The notes: generated by a model not told the origin, from the sequence alone. Positions 1-24,107 are shown, numbered from the stretch's first letter. The stretch: DNA of 24,108 nucleotides from a virus (IMGVR_UViG_3300030104_007197:1-24108), one strand, 5' to 3'. Program-made: numbers and translations.

Positions 1-2
1 TA

Positions 3-137
3 CATGAAGACGGCTCAAGGGCTTATCTGGAAATGGGTCACTACGATCTCGACTTTGCCAGAGCCGTTGAGGACTTTTTAGAGCGAGCCGAAAACTGGAG
101 AAAATACCCGCTGCCAAGCGCAGCGAATTCCAACTGA
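3..137 (+). CDS. Hypothetical phage protein, 5'-truncated by the window edge
   Basis: Open frame HEDGSRAYLEMGHYDLDFARAVEDFLERAENW...NSN*; its TGA stop (135-137) lies inside the hammerhead core. Confidence 0.7.
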   Translation, partial: HEDGSRAYLEMGHYDLDFARAVEDFLERAENWRKYPLPSAANSN

Positions 138-192
138 ATGAGAGTCGGGTGGTGCCCGACCGAAACGCCCGACAGGGCGTCTTGGAAAACCA
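128..192 (+). ncRNA. Type I hammerhead ribozyme, copy 1 (core with one extra nucleotide)
   Basis: Stem I TTCCAA(128-133)/TTGGAA(182-187); core CTGAATGA(134-141); stem II G142-C161 plus GTCGGG/CCCGAC; GAAA(162-165); stem III CGCCC-GACA-GGGCG; GUC triplet with cleavage after C181; loop II TGGT can pair with ACCA(189-192). Confidence 0.88.
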
Positions 193-217
193 ACTTACAA
201 GTCCTGAGGAGGATATT

Positions 218-472
218 ATGAATATCAAGTTAAACAATGATCCCAGCACGTTCACCAAAGCGGAAACGAAGCTCATGGATCAAGCCGGAGCTGTCAATGC
301 TCCGATCGCCGTGGCGCTGCGCCAAAATCCTGAAAGCTGGAAGCTCAGTGTGATGGGTCAGACGCATCGTCCCCGCAAGCAATTTGTTGATCTCCGTAAG
401 AACCAAAAGATCTCTCTTGGAGCTGCAAAGCAAATAGTTGCCAAATTTGAGAGGGAGAATAATCATGCCTAG
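218..472 (+). CDS. Hypothetical phage protein (84 aa)
   Basis: ATG at 218 after GAGGAGG RBS; the ORF-track start at 149 runs through the ribozyme and is unlikely. Confidence 0.8.
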   Translation: MNIKLNNDPSTFTKAETKLMDQAGAVNAPIAVALRQNPESWKLSVMGQTHRPRKQFVDLRKNQKISLGAAKQIVAKFERENNHA

Positions 473-662
473 AGCAGACCACATAGACAACGGAGCCACG
501 CGAATCCTTTTTACAGAGTCATGTTTTGACTGCGATTATAGCGGTTGCAGAGTAATTTTTTCACAAAACGAAGTTTATAGTTTTGAGAGAACGACAAAGT
601 GCAACCGCGAAGATGTTTACCCGCTCCAAATCAGCGATATCGAAGAGGAGGTGGCATCATGA
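465..662 (+). CDS. Hypothetical Cys-containing small protein
   Basis: GGGAG RBS, ATG 465 overlapping upstream stop; ends in ATGA coupling. Confidence 0.65.
   Translation: MPRADHIDNGATRILFTESCFDCDYSGCRVIFSQNEVYSFERTTKCNREDVYPLQISDIEEEVAS
643..662 (+). repeat. 20-bp gene-junction repeat, copy 1 (AAGAGGAGGTGGCATCATGA)
   Basis: Identical to 1230-1249; encodes EEVAS*, the RBS and an ATGA overlap. Confidence 0.9.
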
Positions 663-1249
663 AAACCTACAAAGCAAAAGTAGACTTGTTTGGCACAGGC
701 AGCGCAAATGCTGAGACGTTTAGCGAGTGCGGCGCAGGAAGACGGTGGGCGGAGAAATGCGCCCTCTACACGCTCCAAACCGTTTTTGATGAGGCGACAT
801 CAATAAACCATTTAGACGCTTTGTCCGTTCAAGCGACCGGCTCAGCTCTCGAAATTGATGTAAGGACAGAGGGTAGCTTAAGGGTCAGCGATGAGGACGG
901 GAGAAGGCTGAAGATTGCAACGGACAAATGGACCTTCAACCTTGACTACTCCGGTGCTGGTTCCATTAACGCAAGATTGTGGACAAGCGGCTATGTAGGA
1001 TACAAACAAGTGCCCTTGCCGCGTTTACACCAAAGGACCCTTGACAACAGGAAGACGACAGTTGACATGTGTATTATGCCCGACGACGACGAGCAACCGA
1101 AAGGGCCATGTCACCCTGAAATCTATTTATACGATGTAACGAAAGAAGCCTTCGAGAGTGTACAGGAGCACTGGTGCACCGCCTATGGTCGAAACGCCGT
1201 GGTGGAGGCTAGGTCTTTTCTCTCAGAGCAAGAGGAGGTGGCATCATGA
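659..1249 (+). CDS. Hypothetical phage protein (196 aa)
   Basis: GAGGAGG RBS and ATGA start at 659 (not 599). Confidence 0.8.
   Translation: MKTYKAKVDLFGTGSANAETFSECGAGRRWAEKCALYTLQTVFDEATSINHLDALSVQATGSALEIDVRTEGSLRVSDEDGRRLKIATDKWTFNLDYSGAGSINARLWTSGYVGYKQVPLPRLHQRTLDNRKTTVDMCIMPDDDEQPKGPCHPEIYLYDVTKEAFESVQEHWCTAYGRNAVVEARSFLSEQEEVAS
1230..1249 (+). repeat. 20-bp gene-junction repeat, copy 2
   Basis: Identical to 643-662. Confidence 0.9.
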
Positions 1250-1479
1250 GAATTACTTTAGATCGCAATATTGAGCTAGATAAGGAGGCTTTGCTTGCCT
1301 TTATGTCTGATTTGGGCTATGACGATGAGATCGAGGCACAGGGTGAAGGCTTCGTCCGCGAATACGTCAAAGGCTGGATCTGGCTTCAAGGCTCGGTCAG
1401 CCTTGAAGAGCACGTTATGAAATATGTGGCGGCTCGCTCCAAAACAATTCCAACTGAAGAGCAATCAGATGGTAACTGA
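1246..1479 (+). CDS. Hypothetical acidic phage protein
   Basis: RBS plus ATGA coupling; the last codons and stop overlap hammerhead copy 2. Confidence 0.75.
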   Translation: MRITLDRNIELDKEALLAFMSDLGYDDEIEAQGEGFVREYVKGWIWLQGSVSLEEHVMKYVAARSKTIPTEEQSDGN

Positions 1480-1512
1480 TCGAAACGCCCGCGAGGGCGT
1501 CTTGGAAAACCA
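1448..1512 (+). ncRNA. Type I hammerhead ribozyme, copy 2 (canonical core)
   Basis: Stem I TTCCAA(1448-1453)/TTGGAA(1502-1507); core CTGAAGA(1454-1460); stem II G1461-C1481 plus ATCAG/CTGAT; GAAA(1482-1485); stem III CGCCC-GCGA-GGGCG; cleavage after C1501 (GUC); loop II TGGT can pair with ACCA(1509-1512). Confidence 0.93.
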
Positions 1513-1539
1513 ACTTTACAATCCTGAGGAGGATATAAT

Positions 1540-1758
1540 ATGAATATTGAACAAGCTAACGAAATTCTGGCCCAGCACCATGTTGACCAAGAGGCGCTGG
1601 ATGATTTCTTTGACGAACTGTGGGGACTGCGCGAAAGCGGCGACATGAATATGCTCGAATCACCGCGATGGTTGGAGGACGAGTTTGATGTGCCCAAGAA
1701 GGCGGCACGGGCTATCTTTTATAAGTGGGCTAAGACTTTTGAGGAGCCAACGTCATGA
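1540..1758 (+). CDS. Hypothetical phage protein (LRESGxxNM motif)
   Basis: GAGGAGG RBS; the motif resembles a widespread small phage protein family. Confidence 0.8.
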   Translation: MNIEQANEILAQHHVDQEALDDFFDELWGLRESGDMNMLESPRWLEDEFDVPKKAARAIFYKWAKTFEEPTS

Positions 1759-2225
1759 CTCGCCGAAAGACACTGGGTGACCTGCAGCAAGCGTATGACG
1801 CCAAATATCAAGAGATGGCGAAGATGCCGGTGCATGCCTCGGCTGACGATCGCCTGCTATGTCATGCGCTTGTCAGAGAGCTATCTGTTAACCCCGATGT
1901 TCGCTCCCTATGCGTTCATGATGGCGAAGAGATTTGCCTGACTTATGAGGAGCACAATGCGGCAGCGGACGATTCATTTGTTCCCGTGTGGTGGAAGGTG
2001 CTCGACTCGATGGGTCACACCGGAGAGAACACGATTGAGGCAGTTGACAAAAACTACGACTCGCTGGGCTGGTTTCATCTTCTCTATTATAACGGCTCGG
2101 AAGATGACCCCAATGTCTGCATGTCTGATCACTCAGCAAACGAGTGGACTAAAGATGTAGTCACGCGGATCGAACGTGCTGTCGATTCAGGACGGGTGTT
2201 TTTTCTGGAGGAGGAGCTTGTATGA
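1755..2225 (+). CDS. Hypothetical phage protein
   Basis: GAGGAG RBS, ATGA coupling, 156-aa ORF. Confidence 0.8.
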   Translation: MTRRKTLGDLQQAYDAKYQEMAKMPVHASADDRLLCHALVRELSVNPDVRSLCVHDGEEICLTYEEHNAAADDSFVPVWWKVLDSMGHTGENTIEAVDKNYDSLGWFHLLYYNGSEDDPNVCMSDHSANEWTKDVVTRIERAVDSGRVFFLEEELV

Positions 2226-2425
2226 AAAATCCAGAACTCGAAGCACTGATCTCTGAGCATGATCTCACGACGCAGAAGGTTGCGGACTTGCTCGAAGTGC
2301 CAAAGCGAACGGTTGATAACTGGCGACGGAGTGAGGATTCTGCTCACTCCAACTTCATGTCGAAAGCCAATCTGAAGCTGTTACGGCTGCTACTGGAGAA
2401 TGAAGCAAAGGCGACTGCATCGTAA
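2222..2425 (+). CDS. Small helix-turn-helix DNA-binding protein
   Basis: LTTQKVADLLEVPKRTVDNW is an XRE/Cro-type HTH. Confidence 0.8.
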   Translation: MKNPELEALISEHDLTTQKVADLLEVPKRTVDNWRRSEDSAHSNFMSKANLKLLRLLLENEAKATAS

Positions 2426-2426
2426 A

Positions 2427-2891
2427 CTAGCCCCCCTTTTGGGGGGTTATTTTTTTTAGCCGCGAAATTTTATAATTACCAACCAACTCAACATCCGCAT
2501 GGTCCCTCCGGCTGGCACCCGTCCGGCCTCCCACACTTACCTCGTCCGGTTTCTCGGAAAAATCAATGTATCGAATACCATCATCGTATTGCACCACAAA
2601 AAAACTAGGCACCCCGATCTGCTCGCTGAGCATGTTTGCACTGGCCCTTTTCAGCACAGAAAAAATGATGGTCGGATAGGTTTCGGCCCGAACATTTCTC
2701 ACACGAATCTCAGCCAGCGCAACGATCTTTTGTTGCCTCACGAGCGCAAAGTCTAACCGGTAGCTGAGCGGCAGCTTCAGGTAATCGCACTGCCACCGTT
2801 CGGCCACCGCCTGCATCACCCCTGCCTCACGCGACAGGTCTTCCTCTGTCTCATACAGTGGCCTAGCCAGCCTTCCGCCTCCCCTTGGCAA
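2427..2891 (-). CDS. Putative PD-(D/E)XK-fold nuclease (start uncertain)
   Basis: YRLDF...LAEIRVR resembles the D...E-x-K/R catalytic pattern. Confidence 0.6.
   Translation of the reverse strand: MPRGGGRLARPLYETEEDLSREAGVMQAVAERWQCDYLKLPLSYRLDFALVRQQKIVALAEIRVRNVRAETYPTIIFSVLKRASANMLSEQIGVPSFFVVQYDDGIRYIDFSEKPDEVSVGGRTGASRRDHADVELVGNYKISRLKKITPQKGG
2428..2457 (+). terminator. Rho-independent terminator ending the accessory operon
   Basis: TAGCCCCCC-TTTT-GGGGGGTTA hairpin followed by a T run; overlaps the 3' end of the convergent gene. Confidence 0.85.
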
Positions 2892-3150
2892 ATAACTGCG
2901 TCAGAGCGCTTTTGACAAAGTCGAGGGTATGGTCTGGCTCTGCATCTGCGGGTATGGATGCAACGGCCTGCCTTCGCTCGTCAAGCGTGGGCAAATCGGC
3001 TATACGGGTTGGCAGATAATAGACGAGCGTTGCCCGTGCGAGAGAATGAAATTCCGGCTGAAGATTGGCCTCGATGTATTCAAGGCATTCGGGGTAATGA
3101 ATTTTATCCGCCGCTTTTTGAACCGTCAGTCTAAGTTGCTCCGGCCTCAT
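2863..3150 (-). CDS. Hypothetical phage protein
   Basis: TGATG coupling to the upstream gene gives ATG at 3150 (MRPEQL...). Confidence 0.7.
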   Translation of the reverse strand: MRPEQLRLTVQKAADKIHYPECLEYIEANLQPEFHSLARATLVYYLPTRIADLPTLDERRQAVASIPADAEPDHTLDFVKSALTQLFAKGRRKAG

Positions 3151-3551
3151 CAGAATTCCAACAGATCGCGCATCACCATGATGCCGTCTTGTAGATCCGT
3201 CGTTGCCGTTGAGGCATCGCTGGAGGGATAAAAACCACCGCCCCAACCGATGTCACACAACCGGAAAACGCACCGGATAGGGTGGCGATCGAACTTATAA
3301 ATCAACACGGGAATTAAATCGCCAGAGGTGCTGTTACAGCATTGGCGCCACCATTCGGGATGGTGCCACGCCCCCTTGGCATAGCGCTTACATTCGATCC
3401 TTAAATTGTAGAACTCAATATCCGCCCGACCGGACTGCTGATATTGATCTAAGACTCTTTTTAGGTGGTCGGCGCACTCCCCAAACTCCTCCTGAAAAAT
3501 CTTTATGATCTGTCGCTCAAAGGCGTGGCCCTTGGCTCTCCCGTTAATCAC
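3150..3551 (-). CDS. Holliday junction resolvase-like nuclease (Hjc-type PD-(D/E)XK)
   Basis: GRAKGHAFER...ADI...IECKR motifs. Confidence 0.8.
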   Translation of the reverse strand: MINGRAKGHAFERQIIKIFQEEFGECADHLKRVLDQYQQSGRADIEFYNLRIECKRYAKGAWHHPEWWRQCCNSTSGDLIPVLIYKFDRHPIRCVFRLCDIGWGGGFYPSSDASTATTDLQDGIMVMRDLLEF

Positions 3552-3843
3552 GCTTCAGCACCTCACCGGTACGCGGATCGATGCCGTCGGCTACCTTCAG
3601 CCACCAGCTTGCCTTGCCGATATCGGTGCCCTGCTGGCCCTTATGTCGATGCCTCCAGAGGTACTTAAACGCAGTGACCTTGGCAAAGATCTTGACTTCA
3701 TCCAAGCCAAAAACCTCAAACATCGCATCAACACATTCAACACTGCTAAAGCGATAGTGAGCCGGCGAATTCACATCGTCATCCGGTTCCGGCATTTGCC
3801 TCGGCGGTACAACGCAGTGCCCTGCCTCGCAATCGGCGTTCAT
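3544..3843 (-). CDS. DUF3310 family protein
   Basis: DDVNSPAHY...ECVDAM...KYLWR...KG...DIGKA signature; start placed at ATG 3843 (GAGG RBS) to avoid a 113-nt overlap with the Ref-like gene. Confidence 0.8.
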   Translation of the reverse strand: MNADCEAGHCVVPPRQMPEPDDDVNSPAHYRFSSVECVDAMFEVFGLDEVKIFAKVTAFKYLWRHRHKGQQGTDIGKASWWLKVADGIDPRTGEVLKRD

Positions 3844-3859
3844 CAGCGCCTCGACGTAG

Positions 3860-4162
3860 TCATCGCCGTTCAATTCGCTCGCGGAGCCAGTCGAGAAGCT
3901 CTTGCTCGGCCCCGTAGCGTTCGACAAATCGTCGCTTGAACGGATGTCGGGAAGTGTATAGCTCATTGTCATCTCCTTGTCGGTGGTGCCGGTAGCACAA
4001 CGGAAGCGTCAGCAAGTGACAGTCCGGCCGCGTTTTTCCGGCGATGTGATGGATTTCCGGCGGGGTGTAAACGTGGAAGAATTTCTTGCAGATAACACAC
4101 CCAAACTGGGTGATCGCGTCCATCCACTCCCGCTCTTCAACCGTTGCTGTCTTGCTCTTCAA
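3860..4162 (-). CDS. Ref-family (RecA-dependent) HNH-like nuclease
   Basis: GCVIC...EIHH...TLPLCYRHHR...H...F...YG.E.ELL pattern. Confidence 0.8.
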   Translation of the reverse strand: MKSKTATVEEREWMDAITQFGCVICKKFFHVYTPPEIHHIAGKTRPDCHLLTLPLCYRHHRQGDDNELYTSRHPFKRRFVERYGAEQELLDWLRERIERR

Positions 4163-4373
4163 CGGCGGGCGCGTCAGTAACCGTGATGTCTCCGTAGAGG
4201 TAGTCGACCGAGACGTTGAAATAGCCGGCTATGCGCTTCATAACGTCATAGCGAGGACTTGCCGTCTTGCCGTGGATAAAGCGATTGATGGTCGGTTGCG
4301 AAACCCCTGTGCGCCTACTCAGCTCCGTCTGAGACACCTTAAATTCGTCCAATAATTTCTCTAGCGCGTTCAC
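4137..4373 (-). CDS. XRE/Cro-like HTH transcription regulator
   Basis: SQTELSRRTGVSQPTINRFIHG...P...IAGYFNVSVDYL. Confidence 0.9.
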   Translation of the reverse strand: MNALEKLLDEFKVSQTELSRRTGVSQPTINRFIHGKTASPRYDVMKRIAGYFNVSVDYLYGDITVTDAPAVEEQDSNG

Positions 4374-4386
4374 AATTAGCTCCTAG

Positions 4387-4737
4387 TTAGTCAGTGTTGT
4401 AAATTTGATTCTTTTCAAACCTCAGGGTGGCCATTCGGGAACGCCAGCCCTGAAACTCCATCTTGCATGCTTCCAGCTCGGCTTTAGCGGCTTCGAGATC
4501 GCCCTTGGCGGCATACACCGACATGCGAGCCTCAAAGCATGCGTCATCTTCATCGGCGTAGCGCTCTTGCTTGCCAATCGTCTTAATGCCGCTCGCCTCT
4601 GCGATGGCCATGGTCTGTGCCGTCTTTTTCTTAGCGGTCAACTCACACCGGCCGACATACCTAACAGCCTCCCGCAAGGACTTGCCCGCCTCCCGAACCT
4701 TCTCCGCATACCTCTCAACAACATCTATTTCCATCAC
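4387..4737 (-). CDS. Hypothetical helical/coiled-coil phage protein
   Basis: ATGA coupling to the helicase gene; Ala/Glu/Lys-rich helical composition. Confidence 0.75.
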   Translation of the reverse strand: MMEIDVVERYAEKVREAGKSLREAVRYVGRCELTAKKKTAQTMAIAEASGIKTIGKQERYADEDDACFEARMSVYAAKGDLEAAKAELEACKMEFQGWRSRMATLRFEKNQIYNTD

Positions 4738-12770: not shown

Positions 12771-13865
12771 ATGGAATCTATATTATTTGAAGAAGCGGTT
12801 GCCGAGTATGTCGGCCAACCAACAAAGCGCCGAAACAGAAAAAAGGCTGCGGATGACAATGCCGCTCGGACGCTTGACTGGATGTCTCGAAAACGCCCCT
12901 CGGTAGTGGTTTTACCGGACGGGAAAGAGAGGATCTATTCCAAGCGTCTGGAGGCTCAGCACCCTGATTTCACCGTTAAGGCGTATGACGAAACGTCCGG
13001 TTTATTTGCTGGGCGTGACATGGGCAGCATTACCAATCGGGATGTCTTGAAGATGGAAAACGTGCTTCGTAACGACAAGGGTTTGACGGAAGACACCATC
13101 AACACTTATCGCACCTATCTTCAGGCGCTGTGTAATTTTGCCCGCAACAAACTGTGTGTCGAGTTCAAGCTGTTTCCCGAAATAGAGATGGCAAGGAGCA
13201 CGGAGCGGCAGTTCGTTTTCTCGCAGGATCAGGCGCGTGGCTTGCTGCGTTTTCTTGACCCGCTTCGGCAGGACCTGATGCGAATGGCTTTGCTCATTGG
13301 CAGACGGAAGAGCAACATTGCGCTGATGCGCTGGAAATGGGTCAATCAGGCTTTGACTCAGGTTGTGATTCCGGCTGACGAGACGAAGAACGGGTGCGCT
13401 GACACGGTCTATCTTAGCGAGGATGCTCACGAACTGATGCGTAAGCGACTGGAGATCCATCAGCGGTTGGCGCTACAGTACAAGTCTGATCGACACCAGC
13501 GCGGCTTGGAATATGTGTTTGTTCAGGAAGAGGCGCCGCACACTTGCATGCCGTTGCAGCCGAACTCGGTGACCAACAAGTCGTGGAAGAAGGCAGTCCG
13601 CTTGTACAATCAGAGCATTCGCATTAGCGCCGAGCACAAGGGTAAGTCTGTGAACCGCGACCTATTGATTCCTGAGGGCAATTACATGTGCGGGTTTCAT
13701 ACGGCGCGACACACGTTCGCCACCAACCTCAAGGATCTGGGTACTGATGATCTGGACTTGCAGATGGTTGGCGGATGGCGTTCGCTCAATTCGGTCGCAC
13801 GTTATGTGAAGAAGACCGAAGGACGGCAGCGGGCACATCTTGCCAAATTGGATGGTATGCTTTGA
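12771..13865 (+). CDS. int: Tyrosine integrase
   Basis: Catalytic set R (GRRKSNI), K (TKNG), HxxR (FHTARHTFA), W (GGW), Y (VARY); adjacent to attP. Confidence 0.95.
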   Translation: MESILFEEAVAEYVGQPTKRRNRKKAADDNAARTLDWMSRKRPSVVVLPDGKERIYSKRLEAQHPDFTVKAYDETSGLFAGRDMGSITNRDVLKMENVLRNDKGLTEDTINTYRTYLQALCNFARNKLCVEFKLFPEIEMARSTERQFVFSQDQARGLLRFLDPLRQDLMRMALLIGRRKSNIALMRWKWVNQALTQVVIPADETKNGCADTVYLSEDAHELMRKRLEIHQRLALQYKSDRHQRGLEYVFVQEEAPHTCMPLQPNSVTNKSWKKAVRLYNQSIRISAEHKGKSVNRDLLIPEGNYMCGFHTARHTFATNLKDLGTDDLDLQMVGGWRSLNSVARYVKKTEGRQRAHLAKLDGML

Positions 13866-15539: not shown

Positions 15540-18500
15540 TTACTGTTCACCGGCTTTTGCCGCTCGGTATTCCCTGTTAAACAAATCGTAAACCCTTTGC
15601 TCCACCTTCCGTATTTCGTCCAGTCGAGCCGCCCTAGCGACAGGGTCGGTGTTAGCTTCTGCAACCTTTCTAATGTCACGCAGCTTTTTTAGATAACTCT
15701 CCGTGAGCTGCAATGTAATGCGTTCTGCCGTCATTGGATTAAAGGAGTCGCGAAATCTTTTATTCGACTTCTTTCGCATATCCAGCCGCTGCAACAGATA
15801 GCCATAAGACTCGAATTTTTTCTGAGCGGCTTGCAGATTGGCCTCGTGCGGAGCGACCCTGTCGGCATACAGCGACGGGTCCAGTTTCTTAACTTTCCGG
15901 TCAGCGTTCCATTGGGCGCGAGCATCAGTAACTTTAGCCGCCTTCTCTTTAAGCTCTGCCTGTACGTTGTAAACTTGAACATTGTTGTCGTAATACTCGA
16001 ATTGATCTTTGTACTCCGAGGGCGACTTGAAGAACTTAGACAGGATAGGCATATCCGATTTGCGGATTTCTTCATCCGCCAGCATCTTGCCCACCACATC
16101 GCTGATATCCCCAAAGAATGTACCTACACCACCCAAAAAGTAAGCTATCGTGTAATCCATAACATCTGGGCTGATATCGATTAGCCCGCTTTGATACTTA
16201 GAGCCTCCCGTGGCGTCATTCATAAACTGGGCAATACCTTTCAGCCACTCGTTGGTGGACCGCTTAGCCACATAGGCGTCCGCTAATTTTGATTTCAAGA
16301 AAGGGTTCTGCTCGACATAAATCGGACTACCAAAAAAGTTTTTGTTTACCCCTACCTCCCAGAACGGAATGGCGTAGTCTGGGGCAAACCCGCGTACTTG
16401 CTCCGCCAGATTGTCTCCTGCTGAGTAGTGTCGGGGAATAAAGTTAAGCAAGAAGTTGTCCCACAGATCAATGCCCGCCTCCTCGATGGTCTTTGTGCCG
16501 AGCGTCACTTCTGCGCTGAGCCGACCTATGTTCGTAAAAAAGTTGTAACCATAGGGCATGGGCGCAGCAAACGCTTCATTCTTGTCCCCATAGACAATAG
16601 TTAGCGTCCGGTTCAAATGGTGCTCTTCAAAATCGTTATAGAGCTTTTCTTGGTCATCATCTTCCTCTGATTGCAGGATGTTATACATTGCAATGCCGAA
16701 CCCGACACTTACCATTCCCGCTGCCGTAGCTCGCGCCCATGTGAATCTGGCCTTTTTGCCATCTTCGCCCTTTCGGCCAGCAGCCATCGCGTCCACAAAG
16801 TTGACATTGCCCTGCAAGGCTGCGTTGAAAAACAGCCAATGCATATCGATAATGGCGCTGTTTTCCCCTTTGCGATTGAAGTTGACAGTCAAATCTTTAG
16901 CCAGAGTTGCAGCGTCTTCCCTTTCCGCACCTACCTTTCTTGCCTCGATATACGCCGACAAACGGACAGCGTTCTCCATGGTTTGGTTAAAGTCCTCCAC
17001 CCATTTAGCAATCGACCGAAACGCAGCTTTTATCCTGCCGTTGTTAAAGTGGCCTTGAATGTCAGCTAATATCTCGTCCGATGTTTTAGTGAGCGTTAAA
17101 CCGGTTGGCGCTCCGTCTTCGACAAACTCTCTGGCATATTGCAAGTACTCTTTGTCTTTGGCGGTTTTAGCATTCGCCTCCTTGCCTCTCGCCAAACGAT
17201 AGTAAGCCTTCATGGCAGGGAAGTAGCTTTTGAATGTAGCCCCAGCAATATTTTGACTCTGGGTTCTCGATCCCTCTTTGTCCGCCTCGGCAAGCGCATA
17301 AACAATACCGGTCTGCACATCCCTAATCGGGTTTACCAGCCCCCATGTGGGGTTATAGTTAATGTACATATTTCGCCGGAAGTTTTGGAACGACCTGACG
17401 AAGGTGGCGTACTTTTCCATCGCCTCATAACTGAAAGACAACTCGTTGGCACTGGCGTTCTGCAATGTTCTGTTTAAGGTGTCGCTCCTAAAATAAATCA
17501 GCCGAGTCTGGCCGTCTTTCTTGAGCTGCAAATAATTCCTAGTGCCGTCCCCATTGGGCCGCATCTCATTCATCATGTCGCGCAACTCTTGAGGCTCGAC
17601 ATCGCCTTTCTTTTTCGGCCTATTCTTGGAGTGCGGACTGTATCGGGCAAATGACTTGCTTTGGCCTAGCTGCCCCAGCAGATCAAACAGGGTGATCATT
17701 ACAGCGTTCTTTCTGGCCCGAACAATGCTTTGCTGTACATCTTCGATAGCTTTTAAGGCGGGGTTGACAGGCAGGGTGATCCGGCCCATAGCTTTCATGC
17801 TTTCGCTGCCTCGCACCGAAAATCCTCGTGTGCCATTACCAGCGATTATTTCCTCGCCTTTATCAATAACTTCCTTTTCCGCAGCGAACCCTTTAAGAGG
17901 CACATAAAACTCGTATTTCTCTTCCCAGTCCTGCTTTGTGTCTGCATCTAATAGTTGGGCATTTTTTAAAACGTCTCGCCGAAACTGCGTAATCTCCATT
18001 AACTTTTGATGCGCTGCTTTTATTTTATCTGCGGAGTTGGACTCCTCAAAGGTTTGGACAATTTGCGCGGCTTCAGCATTGGTGAGGCCAGAACCGGTAT
18101 CAGCGTACTGATAAGGCAGCGCCTCTTGGAGTCGGTACTTTTCCCTTAGGTTGTCGATCTGCCGAGAGTGATCGACATCGTCATCCTTCGCCTCTAAGGC
18201 ATCAATGGTGCGCTGAATTTTGGCGAGCTTCTTCGCTCTGATAGCCAGCTCTTGATCGAATATGTGCTTATTGCGCTCCGGCGCATGCTTGGCAAGAGCA
18301 TACCACCCCAGTTGATTAACAGTCAGATTGGCCGACTGGAGCGTCTCAGCCAAGGGCACTACATAGTCTCTTTCAAACTGCTCTAGATCATCCTTGACCC
18401 GACCGTGCATAAGGTTCTCTTGGTCGCGAGGCGACATCCTCGCAGGAAGCCTCCCCATCTCCATGTACTCGGCTGCTTGCCTTTCAAAATCCTCTAGCAC

Positions 18501-21500
18501 CTTATATCGGTCAATAACGGCGGCATATGCGGGCATATCCTTCACTCGTTGAGCGAGGGTTCTCTGCACATCAATTTCGTCATTAAAAGTAAACGTGTTG
18601 GAAGACTCGCTCCCGTCATCCAATATGTTCATGTGCTGGTTGCGGGTCTTAATGAAAGCGAATTTTTCTACGTCATCGAACTCTGGATTTTGAACCAGAA
18701 CGAAGTTGCCAATCTGGATGACTTCATCTGCCTTAACAATGGGGCGCTGCTGCTCCAGATCATAAAAGAAGGAGTGGCGTTCTGGGTTCATGGATGCCTG
18801 CACCCAACCTTCCTCGCCTATATTGCTTACTGCCTCAAAGTAGTTTTGATCATCGGTAGCAGCAACATAGTCTCCTTCCATAGTGGCAATGGTGGTTTTA
18901 TCTTTCCCCTGCGAAATATTTAAAGCGCCCTTCTCCGGCACCGCGAAATCGACATTCTTAACTCTGATCGTGGGGTAGTAGCCGACTCTGGCTCCAGCCT
19001 GTCCTCGGAAGGCGCCATCTTTACCCCTTGGCCTTGCCTCATGGACCGTAACAATATCAATCCTTTCGTTGGCGATTAGCCATGTATAGGAGGGAATGTC
19101 CAGCCTGACGCCGACTCGCTTGCCGTCTTCAATGGGAACCTGAAAATAAGTGTCCTTGCGAGGCTTGCCTTTTGCCTCCTCCCTGTCGGTCTTTTTGAGC
19201 GCATTGAGGTAGTCCTTGTCCGGCCTGACCTTGGGCACGGTCTCGCGGATAAACGGACGCACAAAGCGACCTTCCTCCTCGAAGATCTGATTTAATCGGG
19301 TCGCGCTGATTTTACGGTCCACTCGATCGCGGACGGCTTGCTGGAGTACTGGGTTGCGTTTTTGTTCAGGTCGAATAAGGACCTTTCTGGCGTTCTTCTG
19401 AACGAAGAGTTTGAGGCGGGTGTCGCGGTCGGTGGCTAAGCCTTTGGCGATGGTCTCAGCGTTGGCGAAATCACCAAGCTGCTGCTGGATAATCCCTCTT
19501 GCCTTCTGAATTCTTGCGCTGCTTTGCCCCGCAAGATTTGGCGTGGGACTTTTCCTTCGTAGCGCGGCAAGGATTTGTTTTTCTGTGAGGTCTCTGACTT
19601 TTCCATTGCTCTCCCTTTGTACCTTTCCAATTAACTTCTCAACCTGAGAATTATACACATTTTCATTAAACGAATCAATGACTTGATCGTAATCTTCGAT
19701 CATTGAGTAGCCCGCGCTGGTCCACTGAGCGTCTTGGGTGGATATTTTTGTGATGCTCGTATCATCAACAATCAACATCTGATCTGCCGCATCTGCAACA
19801 AGCTGCATATCAGGCGTGACCGGCTCAAAAGTGTCGGTGTCAAAAGCCAAAACATTAAACTCATAACCGTTTGGATAGCGCGTGTAATTCATGTCCGCAC
19901 CGTCCGGCAAGGCGGCAGCAAATGCCTCGATCTGCTCCCGCGAAAGCACCTCTAGTGTCTTAACAAAGACCTGACTGGTTTCGATGTAATTTTCCCTGAC
20001 TCCGTCATCTGTAATTTCTGTCATGTGCGAGGCCGGCACGGCATCCTGATCCCACTGCTTAGCCAGTGAGGTCATCACAATGTTCAGTTGATCCAAGCTC
20101 ACCTGAGGTGGCACAGGTACTCTTATGTTGGGCGACACATCGCCCATGTAGGTGCCGCCGGTTGTAAAGGGCGTCGAGCCGGTTGGCACTGCAATTCTGG
20201 TTGGCTTGGATTGCAGCGAGGATAATCCCAGCGCCTTGAAATAACTGATAAAGGGGTTGTCACCTTTTTTGCTGGCCTTTTGCAGGAGCGTGGAAAAAAC
20301 GGCGTGATATTCGTCCGCTACTTGTGTGTTCCCGCCCTCGACCGCAGCATCAAAGACAGCTCTCGCATCCCTTCCGATTTCATTCCGTAGACTGTTAATT
20401 TCTGCGGTGATGATGGGCTTGTCCCTAAACGTCTTGGTGGTCGGGCTGAGCGCCGCCGGAACGCGGGGGTCCATGAGGATCTCTCGCGTAATGAGATTGT
20501 TAGGCACCTCAATGCCGGATTCCTCCAGAATCTGAATGGCGCCCTTTCTGTTTCTGCCGCCGGTTGCCGATCGGCCCACCAGCGACATACTGTAATCATC
20601 AACGTCATTGATACCGCCAGAGATTTCCTCTGGGGTTGCGCTCTCATATGCTGATAGAGCTTCAGGGGGAGACATGCCCTCGGCTTCCTTCTGCCCCACA
20701 AACTCGTTTTTGTATCGCTGCTCGACCCAGCCTAGCGCCTGAAGCTGCCATGTCTCATAGGGCTGCTCCCCGTCAGGTAAAGAGGCATTGATTTTATCTC
20801 TCAGGCCGATATAGAAGCGCGACATCACCTCATAGAGCACTGGGTTTTTACCGATCTCGTCACCGGTGGTGCCAAAGGTTGCGGCTACCTGTCGGTCGTT
20901 GGTTGATAGCGTTGGGGTAGACATGCCCAGAACAAGCTGCATCGTGCCGCCAAACGACCCTGTCTTTAGACCCTCAAGGTCGGACGTTTTGAGCGCATCC
21001 GTAACCGCCTTGGTGATAACAAGATCATTATCTACCGGCCTGCCTTGCAGGAAGTTCGCAAAGGTAGCGACTGCCCGATGCATGTTCACATAGGGATTTG
21101 CTACCGGCGAGGTGGCCGCCACAACAGAGATAAACTGCTTGATCTCTGCGTCGGTTAAATCCGGCATCACCTTACGCATGGCCTCTGCTGACACCTCATA
21201 CCAGTATCGGGCATTATCCGAGAGCTGAAGCGCTCTGTCCCAGAACACGATGGTGTTTGCATTGATACCCAAACGATCGACTGTTGCTTGTGCCACAGTT
21301 GCTCCGCCCGTGTCAGTGAGGCGTATGGCTTCCGTCAGGATGTCGTTGAGTTCTTGCTGAGTAATATCAAGGCCATCACCCCTAGTGTTTAAATCAAGGT
21401 CTAAGAAGCTGCCGCCTGCAACGGGAGATAAAGGTGTGTTGGGTTGATATTTTCCGGCAATTCTTTCATTTAGCGGGATGCTTTCTTGCAGCTCGGCTAG

Positions 21501-24107
21501 GGTGCGAACCTTTTTGCCGTCGTATTCGTTAGCATCAATGGCTTGCAGACGCTTCAGGTCGGCTTGGGCGTCCTCCGCTTTGATGTAGTTAAAGTCATCT
21601 GGAATATCGTTGTAATCAAAGTCCTCTTCAAAGTCATCATCGACAAGAACCTCTTGTCCCTCCGCTACGGCGTCTGCTGCGGCTCGCGCCTCTGCCCGCA
21701 CTACACGCTCTTCATGTAACTCGTCCAGCCGCGACAACGCTTCTTTCTTGTTGTCCCCCAGACCCAACAGCGGGTCGTAATAGACCGCGCCCAACAAATC
21801 GTCCTGCTCAGTATGCCAAGGGGTGCCCCTGTTGATTTCTTTGTTGTAATAGATCTGATACACAGTGCCATCTGGATAGGTGACATCGTAGTGCCCGCTC
21901 ATATCAAAGTCATCAGCGCGTTTGACAGTGCGTTCGGTTACTGATGTTTCTGGTGGCTGCTGCTCGACAGCACTAGGCGTAGTTTGCACTGGCTGTCGGG
22001 TGCGCGATGCTGCTCTTTTGCTCTCCTTGTCCGATACACGCCGCGTGTGCAGCTCATCAAGTTTTGCCAGCGCCTCCTTTCTGTTGTAGCCGATACCGCT
22101 CGTTTCATACAACATTTTCTGATCGCGGGGTAACTCAAACGCATCCAAGGACCGATAATCTAAAAGCCATATGGGGGTGCTGAGATTGCTGACAGTATCT
22201 CTGTAAATCCAATACACCTCGCCATTTGGATAGGTGACATCGTATCTGCCGTCGTTATTAAAGGTAGAGTTGCGCTTGATCGTGCGCCCAGTGACTAGGT
22301 CTGCTTGTACCTCTGGTCGTTCACGTTCCCCAGTTTCCTGTTCGGTCGGGTCTGCCACTCCAGTATCGGCTCGCCCTTCTCCAGCGCTTCCTTCGCCATC
22401 TGGTCCAGTTGCTGTAGGTTGAACGCTCTGCTCGCTTCCGGTGACTGGCGGTGCCCGAATCTCTCCTGATATGCCTTCAGGTTGGGAGGTATCTGGATCT
22501 GCTTGAGCTGTAATGTTTCCATCGGTTGCCTCAATCGGTTGAGCTGGCGTCAGGTTTGAATCACGAATGCCTTTGATGTAATCATACGCTAAAGGCGCCT
22601 GTTCTTGAAGTTGCTTGGGGTTGGAATGAAAGAGCGCTCCAAGCTGGGCAAACACCTCTTCCCTGTAGGTGGCGTTTAACCCCTCATTGTCTTGTTTGGG
22701 GTCCGCTATATCGCTAATTAAATCATTAAACGGGTAATTAAATCGCTGGCCAAGTTCGGTTTCATTAACCCAGTTATCATAAATCTCTTTCATGATGGGG
22801 CCGGCCTCAACAGTCGGCGTGTCAGCCTCGCCTCCCAATGTAATAGAGAAGTCAGGATTCTTGTCGCTTAACCCCAGCTTAAAATCTGCCGCGTGGTACA
22901 CCTCATGCGTGACCGACCAAGCCAGCTCGCTAAGAGCATCTATGTCTGTCGAGCTGTTATCGATCAGGGTGCGATTAATTGAGATCCCCTGAGTAGATCG
23001 ACCCGTCATGGCGGGCGCAGGGTTGTCAGCCTCATCATGCACATAAATGCCGGTGACAGTATCCATAAAGGCTTTTGGCACACCGCTGGCTGCAAGATCA
23101 GATGTCACCCCCGCAACGGTATTGTGGGGCTTCACTGCATCACTGTACGCCTCTTCAATGACCGGCATGCTTTTAACCTTGCCCTGCACGGTCTCCATTT
23201 TGAGGGTGGCGTTACGATCAAAGATGCGATCAACGTCATCCTGATCAATAGCCTCGACCACTACATCGTTATTTTCGGGATCTAGTGCCTCAGGGGACTG
23301 GGCCGAAACGGACAACTGGAGCAACTGGTCTGCTACAGGCGTATCGGCCTCAGACAGCGGCTGGTCAAAACGATGCGCTGCACCATAGTTGCCTCCGCCT
23401 CTGGGAACCACCTGAGTGCCATCTGCTGCAATCACTTCTTCTGCTTGAATGACTTCTATGGGTGCATCTGTTGCGGCTTCAGGTTGAAAATCCTGCATGC
23501 GCTGCAAACTTTCATCAAGCAAGGCATCACCCGTCTCTTCCATGCCTGTAAAAGGATCATCTCGATACTGATCGATCTTGTCCCGAACCCTTTGCTCAAT
23601 GCTCTTGGTGACGGTAATTTCACCGGCCGCAAAGTCTGGATCTGGCGTAACGTCTCTGGCGCCCGAAATGTCCGTCTCTTGACCGTACTGACCGGTAGCG
23701 CCTTTGTAGGCGGCAGTGCCGGTTCCCACAACCTTGCCGAACAAGAGTCCTGCCGAAACATTATTCAGCAGCCCTGATTGCTTTTCCGCGTTTTCAAGGT
23801 AGTTCATGTAAGCGATGCGTTCTTCGTTTGTGTAGTTGTTGTTAACGAACGTAATCGCCTCTTGCTCAACGATGTATTGCAGACCCTCCACCATGCCGCT
23901 CCAGCCCATGGTTTGGCCTATATCCTTTAGGGCTTCAATTTTCCATGAGGGCGCGTCCACCAGTTGGCCGGCAATTCCGTCAGCAAACTCAGAGGCACTT
24001 TTGTTGGGGAATATAGCCTCAAAGGTCTTCATGAACGGCAGCATATTGAGCGCACCATTTGTTATACCCACGGCGAGCGCAGTCATGGGGGCCTCAACAC
24101 CCGTCTC
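15540..24107 (-). CDS. Giant polyvalent virion/DNA-ejection protein with C-terminal LPD38-like region; 5'-truncated
   Basis: More than 2,848 aa and open to the window edge; VNFNRKG...LFFNAALQG, PMPYGY, NKNFFGSPI and FLGGVG motifs; internal HEVYH motif. Confidence 0.85.
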   Translation of the reverse strand, partial: ETGVEAPMTALAVGITNGALNMLPFMKTFEAIFPNKSASEFADGIAGQLVDAPSWKIEALKDIGQTMGWSGMVEGLQYIVEQEAITFVNNNYTNEERIAYMNYLENAEKQSGLLNNVSAGLLFGKVVGTGTAAYKGATGQYGQETDISGARDVTPDPDFAAGEITVTKSIEQRVRDKIDQYRDDPFTGMEETGDALLDESLQRMQDFQPEAATDAPIEVIQAEEVIAADGTQVVPRGGGNYGAAHRFDQPLSEADTPVADQLLQLSVSAQSPEALDPENNDVVVEAIDQDDVDRIFDRNATLKMETVQGKVKSMPVIEEAYSDAVKPHNTVAGVTSDLAASGVPKAFMDTVTGIYVHDEADNPAPAMTGRSTQGISINRTLIDNSSTDIDALSELAWSVTHEVYHAADFKLGLSDKNPDFSITLGGEADTPTVEAGPIMKEIYDNWVNETELGQRFNYPFNDLISDIADPKQDNEGLNATYREEVFAQLGALFHSNPKQLQEQAPLAYDYIKGIRDSNLTPAQPIEATDGNITAQADPDTSQPEGISGEIRAPPVTGSEQSVQPTATGPDGEGSAGEGRADTGVADPTEQETGERERPEVQADLVTGRTIKRNSTFNNDGRYDVTYPNGEVYWIYRDTVSNLSTPIWLLDYRSLDAFELPRDQKMLYETSGIGYNRKEALAKLDELHTRRVSDKESKRAASRTRQPVQTTPSAVEQQPPETSVTERTVKRADDFDMSGHYDVTYPDGTVYQIYYNKEINRGTPWHTEQDDLLGAVYYDPLLGLGDNKKEALSRLDELHEERVVRAEARAAADAVAEGQEVLVDDDFEEDFDYNDIPDDFNYIKAEDAQADLKRLQAIDANEYDGKKVRTLAELQESIPLNERIAGKYQPNTPLSPVAGGSFLDLDLNTRGDGLDITQQELNDILTEAIRLTDTGGATVAQATVDRLGINANTIVFWDRALQLSDNARYWYEVSAEAMRKVMPDLTDAEIKQFISVVAATSPVANPYVNMHRAVATFANFLQGRPVDNDLVITKAVTDALKTSDLEGLKTGSFGGTMQLVLGMSTPTLSTNDRQVAATFGTTGDEIGKNPVLYEVMSRFYIGLRDKINASLPDGEQPYETWQLQALGWVEQRYKNEFVGQKEAEGMSPPEALSAYESATPEEISGGINDVDDYSMSLVGRSATGGRNRKGAIQILEESGIEVPNNLITREILMDPRVPAALSPTTKTFRDKPIITAEINSLRNEIGRDARAVFDAAVEGGNTQVADEYHAVFSTLLQKASKKGDNPFISYFKALGLSSLQSKPTRIAVPTGSTPFTTGGTYMGDVSPNIRVPVPPQVSLDQLNIVMTSLAKQWDQDAVPASHMTEITDDGVRENYIETSQVFVKTLEVLSREQIEAFAAALPDGADMNYTRYPNGYEFNVLAFDTDTFEPVTPDMQLVADAADQMLIVDDTSITKISTQDAQWTSAGYSMIEDYDQVIDSFNENVYNSQVEKLIGKVQRESNGKVRDLTEKQILAALRRKSPTPNLAGQSSARIQKARGIIQQQLGDFANAETIAKGLATDRDTRLKLFVQKNARKVLIRPEQKRNPVLQQAVRDRVDRKISATRLNQIFEEEGRFVRPFIRETVPKVRPDKDYLNALKKTDREEAKGKPRKDTYFQVPIEDGKRVGVRLDIPSYTWLIANERIDIVTVHEARPRGKDGAFRGQAGARVGYYPTIRVKNVDFAVPEKGALNISQGKDKTTIATMEGDYVAATDDQNYFEAVSNIGEEGWVQASMNPERHSFFYDLEQQRPIVKADEVIQIGNFVLVQNPEFDDVEKFAFIKTRNQHMNILDDGSESSNTFTFNDEIDVQRTLAQRVKDMPAYAAVIDRYKVLEDFERQAAEYMEMGRLPARMSPRDQENLMHGRVKDDLEQFERDYVVPLAETLQSANLTVNQLGWYALAKHAPERNKHIFDQELAIRAKKLAKIQRTIDALEAKDDDVDHSRQIDNLREKYRLQEALPYQYADTGSGLTNAEAAQIVQTFEESNSADKIKAAHQKLMEITQFRRDVLKNAQLLDADTKQDWEEKYEFYVPLKGFAAEKEVIDKGEEIIAGNGTRGFSVRGSESMKAMGRITLPVNPALKAIEDVQQSIVRARKNAVMITLFDLLGQLGQSKSFARYSPHSKNRPKKKGDVEPQELRDMMNEMRPNGDGTRNYLQLKKDGQTRLIYFRSDTLNRTLQNASANELSFSYEAMEKYATFVRSFQNFRRNMYINYNPTWGLVNPIRDVQTGIVYALAEADKEGSRTQSQNIAGATFKSYFPAMKAYYRLARGKEANAKTAKDKEYLQYAREFVEDGAPTGLTLTKTSDEILADIQGHFNNGRIKAAFRSIAKWVEDFNQTMENAVRLSAYIEARKVGAEREDAATLAKDLTVNFNRKGENSAIIDMHWLFFNAALQGNVNFVDAMAAGRKGEDGKKARFTWARATAAGMVSVGFGIAMYNILQSEEDDDQEKLYNDFEEHHLNRTLTIVYGDKNEAFAAPMPYGYNFFTNIGRLSAEVTLGTKTIEEAGIDLWDNFLLNFIPRHYSAGDNLAEQVRGFAPDYAIPFWEVGVNKNFFGSPIYVEQNPFLKSKLADAYVAKRSTNEWLKGIAQFMNDATGGSKYQSGLIDISPDVMDYTIAYFLGGVGTFFGDISDVVGKMLADEEIRKSDMPILSKFFKSPSEYKDQFEYYDNNVQVYNVQAELKEKAAKVTDARAQWNADRKVKKLDPSLYADRVAPHEANLQAAQKKFESYGYLLQRLDMRKKSNKRFRDSFNPMTAERITLQLTESYLKKLRDIRKVAEANTDPVARAARLDEIRKVEQRVYDLFNREYRAAKAGEQ

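Follow-up and report, generated by a model that had tools for sequence, protein, structure and literature searches.

The window analyzed here, a stretch of 24,108 nt that constitutes an entire virus record (estimated completeness, 43%), opens inside an array of type I hammerhead ribozymes. On comparative evidence, the members of this array probably serve as self-cleaving punctuation. They would divide a single long transcript, probably an early one, into linear pieces that each hold one to four genes; the transcript is called early because of its gene content and position. Operon processing had been named in a sequence-only reading of the locus as the simpler alternative to an excised, circular mRNA, and it emerged as the better-supported reading.

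Two hammerheads at the start of a marine phage record

The phage carrying the window is a marine tailed phage. Encoded in it are an integrase, Sak- and RecE-like recombination proteins, and, for replication, a primase/helicase and an O-like protein. The first 2.5 kb was present in whole or in part in 7 sequencing runs, all 7 of them marine metagenomes, with most of it present in two runs of a single study, one of which is a possible source of the record. The primase/helicase was at most 39% identical to proteins of cultured phages, and the sequence of the first hammerhead (copy 1) had no match among 50,697 annotated phage records. A scan of genome contigs for a host, using a pattern with fixed stem III length, returned 27 matches, none of them a valid type I hammerhead. 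A tyrosine-integrase-like gene (12771-13865) suggests a temperate phage. Elsewhere in the window, positions 15540-24086 of the minus strand encode a 2,848-amino-acid protein whose C-terminal third matched phrog_14770 and phrog_616, phage families of unknown function; its residues 1-1,700 had no PHROG match. The hammerhead locus lies at the contig start, in a plus-strand run of small genes without assigned function, and promoter scans of the window and of positions 1-4400 of a relative, L165, gave chance-level results and no convincing promoter.

A structure-checked descriptor covering all three stems identified exactly two type I hammerheads in the window, both on the plus strand (Table 1), with predicted cuts after C181 and C1501, 1,320 nt apart; the same descriptor had 0 matches in 100 dinucleotide shuffles of the window, which bears out the two same-strand ribozymes and the spacing given in the sequence-only reading. 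A family covariance model, whose training set included both window copies, found no third copy within the window. In both copies, three helices surround the core and stem I is open, the layout of a type I hammerhead. The type I consensus comprises the core CUGANGA, GAAA, and an NUH triplet, in agreement with the Rfam RF00163 consensus; copy 2 matched it exactly and copy 1 had one inserted base (A6a). The earlier statement that the core is kept in both copies therefore needs correcting, as the core of copy 1 has 8 nt (CUGAAUGA), one more than the canonical form found in copy 2. Other structural observations of that reading held: the stem II arms are unlike in sequence yet paired in both copies (GUCGGG/CCCGAC in copy 1, AUCAG/CUGAU in copy 2), and the first 15 nt 3' of each cut are the same. 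Overlooked there was the pseudoknot formed by UGGU of loop II and ACCA of the 3' tail. The plain minimum-energy fold of copy 2 was an alternative structure (-19.4 kcal/mol, versus -15.9 kcal/mol for the hammerhead fold computed without the pseudoknot).

An Infernal search with Rfam models, proposed earlier as a check, gave a divided answer. The search of the whole window returned no match at E ≤ 1. In a scan of 1.5 kb, copy 1 had no RF00163 match and copy 2 scored 23.7 bits (cutoff, 34), so both copies lay under the gathering score. Among relatives, one copy scored 36.7, the only one of 8 RF00163 matches to pass the cutoff. Such scores lower the case for membership of the entry RF00163 (clan CL00010), not of the ribozyme class: the open stem I, the core CUGANGA...GAAA, and the GUC triplet are shared with the entry, whereas stems II and III are longer here, the pseudoknot is missing from the model, and copy 1 carries its extra core base.

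The four ORFs that had been placed between the cuts (218-1479) were confirmed, and the stop and start codons of neighbors overlap. None of ORF1 to ORF4 had a PHROG or Pfam family, and ORF1 had no relatives among viral contigs and no Atlas match. Reading on into copy 2, ORF4 takes in its stem I, core, and stem II, and the stop at 1479 lies within the ribozyme. A 23-nt repeat (96% alike) at 643-665 and 1230-1252 contains a ribosome-binding site (RBS) and overlapping stop and start codons, and may be a swap point for cassette genes. The proteins of ORF2 and ORF3 both have a C-terminal EEVAS.

Table 1. Features of the hammerhead locus (window coordinates)
Feature	Position	Strand	Basis or remark
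Upstream ORF, 3' end (open at contig start)	3-137	+	Stop is the UGA of the copy 1 core; full-length homologue at L165 1807-2094
Copy 1, type I hammerhead	128-193	+	Descriptor, covariance model, family alignment
Copy 1, stem I	128-133/182-187
Copy 1, core CUGAAUGA	134-141		A6a insertion
Copy 1, G10.1	142
Copy 1, bulged A	143
Copy 1, stem II	144-149/155-160
Copy 1, pseudoknot	150-153 with 189-192
Copy 1, C11.1	161
Copy 1, GAA	162-164
Copy 1, stem III	165-170/175-180
Copy 1, cut	after C181		Predicted
SD hairpin (5-bp stem, GAGG loop)	201-214	+	Folding; precedes ATG at 218
ORF1, 84 aa	218-472	+	No family assigned
ORF2, 65 aa	465-662	+	No family assigned
ORF3, 196 aa	659-1249	+	Homologues in L165 and L136/L137
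ORF4, 77 aa	1246-1479	+	Final codons overlap copy 2
Copy 2, type I hammerhead	1448-1513	+	Descriptor, covariance model, family alignment, Rfam match under the cutoff
Copy 2, stem I	1448-1453/1502-1507
Copy 2, core CUGAAGA	1454-1460		Canonical
Copy 2, G10.1	1461		Followed by 2-nt bulge
Copy 2, stem II	1464-1468/1476-1480
Copy 2, pseudoknot	1470-1473 with 1509-1512
Copy 2, stem III	1485-1490/1495-1500
Copy 2, cut	after C1501		Predicted
SD hairpin	1521-1534	+	Folding; precedes ATG at 1540
Closing three genes of the operon, 3' of copy 2	1540-2425	+	72 aa, 156 aa, and 67 aa (repressor-like)
Intrinsic-terminator-like hairpin and T run	2428-2457	+	Would end the plus-strand operon; equivalent site in L165

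A recurrent module between phage genes

Motif scans of viral contigs yielded 137 loci, or 138 with the window; a strict match was present in 135, and removal of redundancy left 86 arrays with 126 distinct copies. These loci were retrieved by motif and many are kin, so family statistics are biased by search patterns and kinship, and the pattern itself dictates some positions in stem I and the tail. When 65 of the 126 copies were aligned, leaving out near-duplicates and those with very long stems, 98.3% of 1,232 alignment cells were paired, with double changes in 15 of 19 pairs; none of 500 shuffles paired as highly, and slid controls reached 26-41%. The pseudoknot columns were paired in 96% of cells, with double changes in 3 of 4 pairs, and the loop/tail combinations among all 126 copies were GG/C (68), AG/T (40), the wobble GG/T (9), others (9), and AG/C (0). 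Compensatory changes in the helices and in the tertiary pseudoknot, set around an intact catalytic core, point to selection on the RNA fold. A covarying tertiary contact of this kind argues for active ribozymes, and from conservation both window copies are likewise expected to be active.

A relaxed descriptor raised the number of distinct copies to 142 (the shuffle control covers the structure-checked descriptor only); 25 such extra copies agree in kind with inspected covariance-model matches. The cleavage triplet was GUC in 134 of the 142. Several family copies have a greatly extended stem III with inserts of tens of bases (L034 2648-2780, L015 6776-6880, L001 2341-2447, L008 1242-1348, and L075 7287-7393). 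Type III or type II hammerheads were also observed on the same strand a few kilobases upstream of family copies (L019 1955-2010, L012 near 4414, and L060 3545-3608), so hammerhead types mix in one region. A conserved hairpin at the 5' end of the cut product was considered as a family feature and rejected, because the common CTAG/CCAA class (21/126) cannot form it.

The position of the copies relative to genes was regular. Of the 126 copies, 116 were followed by a Shine-Dalgarno (SD) sequence and start codon no more than 60 nt from the cut, compared to 1,085 of 6,020 random positions, and in those 116 the SD-led ORF began 21-58 nt (median, 29) after the cut. No locus had copies on both strands. 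At the other side, the upstream stop codon usually lay at the 5' edge of the ribozyme (an upstream ORF was assigned for 118/126 copies). The SD itself sits in a hairpin, N-CCT-GAGG-AGG-N', whose outer pair was Watson-Crick in all 42 family copies with the CCT-GAGG-AGG core and comprised all four pair types. Across the surveyed loci, the module is shown to extend from roughly the stop codon of the upstream gene, over a pseudoknotted hammerhead, to an SD hairpin and a start codon. Of 150 other start sites with GAGGAG in family loci, 73 had the same hairpin, which makes it a wider translation signal in these phages.

This close fit between genes and ribozymes invites the idea that cleavage is gated by translation, with a ribosome at the upstream stop unfolding the ribozyme so that cutting, or use of the next RBS, depends on upstream translation. 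Both window copies overlap an ORF end, and among the 118 upstream ORFs, the core UGA is the stop codon of 20, and another 13 terminate just ahead of the core. Tight gene packing, however, accounts equally well for such overlap, and the read-in of ORF4 to copy 2 is absent in L165. The SD is unpaired with the ribozyme and lies in its own hairpin, as at the 73 other start sites, some of which lie behind variant copies. Gating by translation was accordingly judged unlikely.

Among 88 proteins scanned, most of them products of the first gene behind a copy, 10 had a Pfam match, including 3 ArdC-like and 1 DUF932. The ArdC-like anti-restriction genes lie directly behind hammerheads (L075 3340-4218, L041 7818-8687, and L073 6417-7295), as does the DUF932 gene (L165 192-1094). 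They echo the ardA genes behind hammerheads in the available text of Perreault et al. 2011 (PMC3088659).

Array extent, gene turnover, and the question of circular RNA

The two copies of the window, described earlier as a pair, turned out to be the end of a longer array interrupted by the contig start. L165, 91-94% identical to the window outside the variable cassette, encodes five hammerheads with cuts after 139, 1147, 1575, 2138, and 3226, and the window's copies are orthologues of the last two: copy 1 over 109 of 109 nt (126-234) and copy 2 with 65 of 67 nt identical. The search for copies upstream of the window, as had been advised, was rewarded by a third hammerhead on a DNA contig of run X2 that contains window positions 3-724 without differences. 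DNA contigs of runs X1 and X2 covered L165 1-2191 at ~90% identity, one of them ending on the window's first bases. Given this coverage and the third copy, the window's phage very probably has five copies too, as pieced together from several contigs. Relatives had up to 7 copies per record, with neighbors spaced 250-1,636 nt apart. Just 5' of the third hammerhead of L165, positions 1400-1505 form a strongly folded intergenic element (z = -4.2), also covered by the X1/X2 contigs, with a long hairpin and a three-way junction containing an SD-like word; it had no Rfam match at E ≤ 0.5.

Between the orthologous ribozymes lie two ORFs and 1,088 nt in L165 versus four ORFs and 1,320 nt in the window. 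In L165, an unrelated 146-amino-acid ORF, to which the ORF1 protein gave no alignment, takes the place of ORF1 and ORF2, and ORF4 is absent. One DNA contig of run X6 skips ORF4, with 34 nt on its short side, and in L136/L137 the ORF3 homologue lies directly behind a hammerhead of its own. Within the limits of such contig comparisons, genes between modules are shown to be exchanged among relatives and the modules to be retained. Mosaic gene content between repeats, together with the second repeat around the RBSs of the cassette, would also be expected if the repeats acted on the DNA level, mainly as recombination anchors for accessory cassette swaps, with ribozyme activity secondary. That role is highly unlikely in light of the compensatory changes in all helices and the pseudoknot and of the invariant catalytic core; moreover, the stems differ among copies of one array, which lowers DNA homology.

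The same comparisons bear on the circular RNA proposed in the sequence-only reading, in which positions 182-1501 are excised and closed by self-ligation or host RtcB into a functional circular mRNA. Full cleavage of the modeled ribozymes would indeed release a 182-1501 fragment, as that reading supposed. All four ORFs and their RBSs lie inside it, and joining its ends would restore stem I (6 bp) and the pseudoknot (4 bp); the product, if real, would be a 1,320-nt circle with four genes and a rebuilt ribozyme. Retrozymes use two hammerheads in such a manner, according to the portions available of two reports (PMC4918200; PMC7761336). Against this stand the copies not being a dedicated pair and the enclosed genes and their length not being conserved. 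Junction compatibility of neighboring copies was near chance: among 49 neighbor pairs (strict copies only, some being near-duplicates and some having a variant copy between them), stem I would be rebuilt in 32 (65%) and both stem I and the pseudoknot in 19 (39%); the respective values for random cross-array pairs were 59% and 32%.

Copy number also argues against a circle. In 30 records chosen for length or for a lone copy, 14 were near-complete, and of these 6 had a single family copy, 6 had two, and 2 had six to seven, with matches not to be taken as exact copy numbers. Four of the six single-copy near-complete records were examined with a type II/III descriptor that is not exhaustive (it missed a type II copy in L060 that Rfam found): in one, a type III hammerhead lies 1.6 kb upstream, and in the other three no other hammerhead was found within ~6 kb. 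Neither RtcB nor reverse transcriptase was found in any of 24 records (0/13 near-complete ones); a host-encoded RtcB is possible. The 182-1501 unit was not unusually self-paired (z = -1.1 for the circular fold with 12 shuffles, and z = -0.45 for 182-1181). As for experiments, circles were sought and none detected (data not shown) in the available text of PMC3088659. Hammerhead-cut viroid RNA in Escherichia coli gave no substantial circles with an inactive plant ligase, as far as the accessible part of PMC5895719 reports, and that result too counts against the circle. Circles made by a ligase need no rebuilt ribozyme, so the junction and copy-number evidence leaves room for them.

Comparison with retrozymes (Cervera et al. 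2016, PMC4918200; de la Peña et al. 2020, PMC7761336), again from partial texts, underlines the difference. Two same-orientation hammerheads, direct repeats, and a length of ~1 kb are common to both. In the retrozymes described there, the interior is noncoding, the hammerheads lie in ~350-nt LTRs or 150- to 300-nt tandem units, and a highly self-paired circular RNA accumulates in vivo. Here, in contrast, a 94-nt repeat recurs at a spacing of 1,320 nt, the DNA between the hammerheads is variable and encodes proteins, with 218-1479 occupied by four coupled ORFs, and the array is open-ended within a phage operon. A dedicated pair producing a circular cassette RNA is not supported, given the longer array, the nonconserved genes, the single-copy genomes, and the near-chance junctions. 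On these sequence comparisons, circular RNA from the locus seems unlikely, and excision and closure of 182-1501 into a functional circular mRNA very improbable. Natural production of stable, translated, polycistronic circular mRNAs by host RtcB from the blocks, a circular-mRNA factory, appears about as improbable. To find circular mRNAs in phages would be a genuine discovery; the comparative evidence points against them.

Probable transcript processing by canonical and variant ribozymes

If the modules act as punctuation, they would cleave during or soon after transcription. Each upstream piece would have the GC-rich stem III hairpin at its 3' end, which would carry a 2',3'-cyclic phosphate, and each downstream piece would begin with a 5'-OH, a short standard leader, and the SD hairpin; the 5' end of the window's cut product is predicted to fold as a 4-bp hairpin. 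Such a cut could insulate and stabilize each block whatever gene is inserted, and so decouple the decay and translation of accessory genes. The 5'-end preference of RNase E and RppH is the basis for proposing this stability and insulation purpose. No paper testing that purpose for phage hammerheads was found in the literature searched. In early mRNAs of phage T7, sites just 5' of an RBS are cut by the host nuclease RNase III, which leaves a 5' phosphate, and RiboJ is an engineered, synthetic insulator; in both cases the cut standardizes the 5' end of the downstream gene. By analogy, hammerhead punctuation would differ from the T7 sites in being protein-free and leaving a 5'-OH, and the modules would be natural counterparts of RiboJ.

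The core variants suggest how such cutting might be uneven. Among the 142 copies, 114 cores were canonical and 28 were not (12 A6a, a count enriched by a targeted scan for A6a; 7 U10.1; 6 U4C; and 3 C3U/G8A). The stem I of A6a copies was of three types. A bulge of 1 nt after G10.1 was present in 12 of 12 A6a copies, compared to 32 of 114 canonical copies, kinship being ignored. In L165, the inner three copies are A6a, U4C, and A6a, and the outer two are canonical. Copy 1 and its leader had 0 differences from L165 in their 109 nt; the preceding 116 nt, which are coding, match at 103 and differ at 13. Identity beside a diverged flank indicates that the A6a variant has been kept and is not a sequencing slip, and an assembly error was rejected since the same base occurs in L165, in the X1/X2 contigs, and in other phages. 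Copy 1, with its core insertion, may cut slowly or partly, in which case linear 182-1501 RNA would form late or in small amounts; variant cores in general probably make some cuts partial.

A possible elaboration of linear-block processing, rather than an exclusive alternative to it, is that canonical and weakened cores are mixed on purpose, with partial cleavage setting protein ratios or timing along the operon. The share of noncanonical cores (28/142), the recurrence of A6a with three stem I types and a constant bulge, the unchanged copy 1 next to coding DNA that matches at only 103/116, and the placement of variants inside the L165 array would all fit. Yet A6a copies were oversampled by the targeted scan, the link between A6a and the bulge may come from a single ancestor, and variant cores may simply be tolerated. 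The accessible text of PMC3088659 describes an A6a insertion as having low activity, and its oligonucleotide list includes a metagenome construct with the 8-nt core of copy 1; the low activity is, however, known from a different construct, by our reading a type II hammerhead. Deliberate grading is therefore put forward tentatively, as an idea with less than an even chance.

The arrangement itself has been known since 2011, and in this respect the window locus is not surprising. According to the available text of Perreault et al. (PMC3088659), hammerhead clusters in prophages lie on either side of a single gene or a short gene block. They were proposed to yield mRNAs of operon or gene length by processing, with circles named as an alternative, and every site was cleaved in three tandem arrangements in vitro and in one in E. 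coli. The earlier claim that no function had been described for the paired architecture thus does not stand, as both the clusters and the two proposals are in that work. The clusters reported there resemble those of the marine family in having several same-strand hammerheads between variable small genes, a pseudoknot as tertiary contact, and A6a, C3U/G8A, and U10.1 core variants. As described, the family surveyed here appears set apart by its type I layout in marine phages, its pseudoknot joining loop II to the 3' tail, an SD hairpin at a short, constant distance, arrays of up to 7 copies in which variant cores recur, and scores mostly under the Rfam cutoff. No later study that addressed what hammerhead arrays do in phages, or circles derived from such arrays, was found in a search that covered the subscription literature thinly, and the accessible part of a 2019 review (PMC6765202) calls the purpose of phage hammerheads unresolved.

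Why phages place self-cleaving ribozymes between their genes has, judging from the available text of these two sources, been an open question since 2011 (PMC3088659; PMC6765202). The family offers more than 100 natural variants of one compact module of stop codon, hammerhead, and SD hairpin, and its matched canonical and variant cores make the question of purpose directly testable. Its members are also potential natural RiboJ-like parts.
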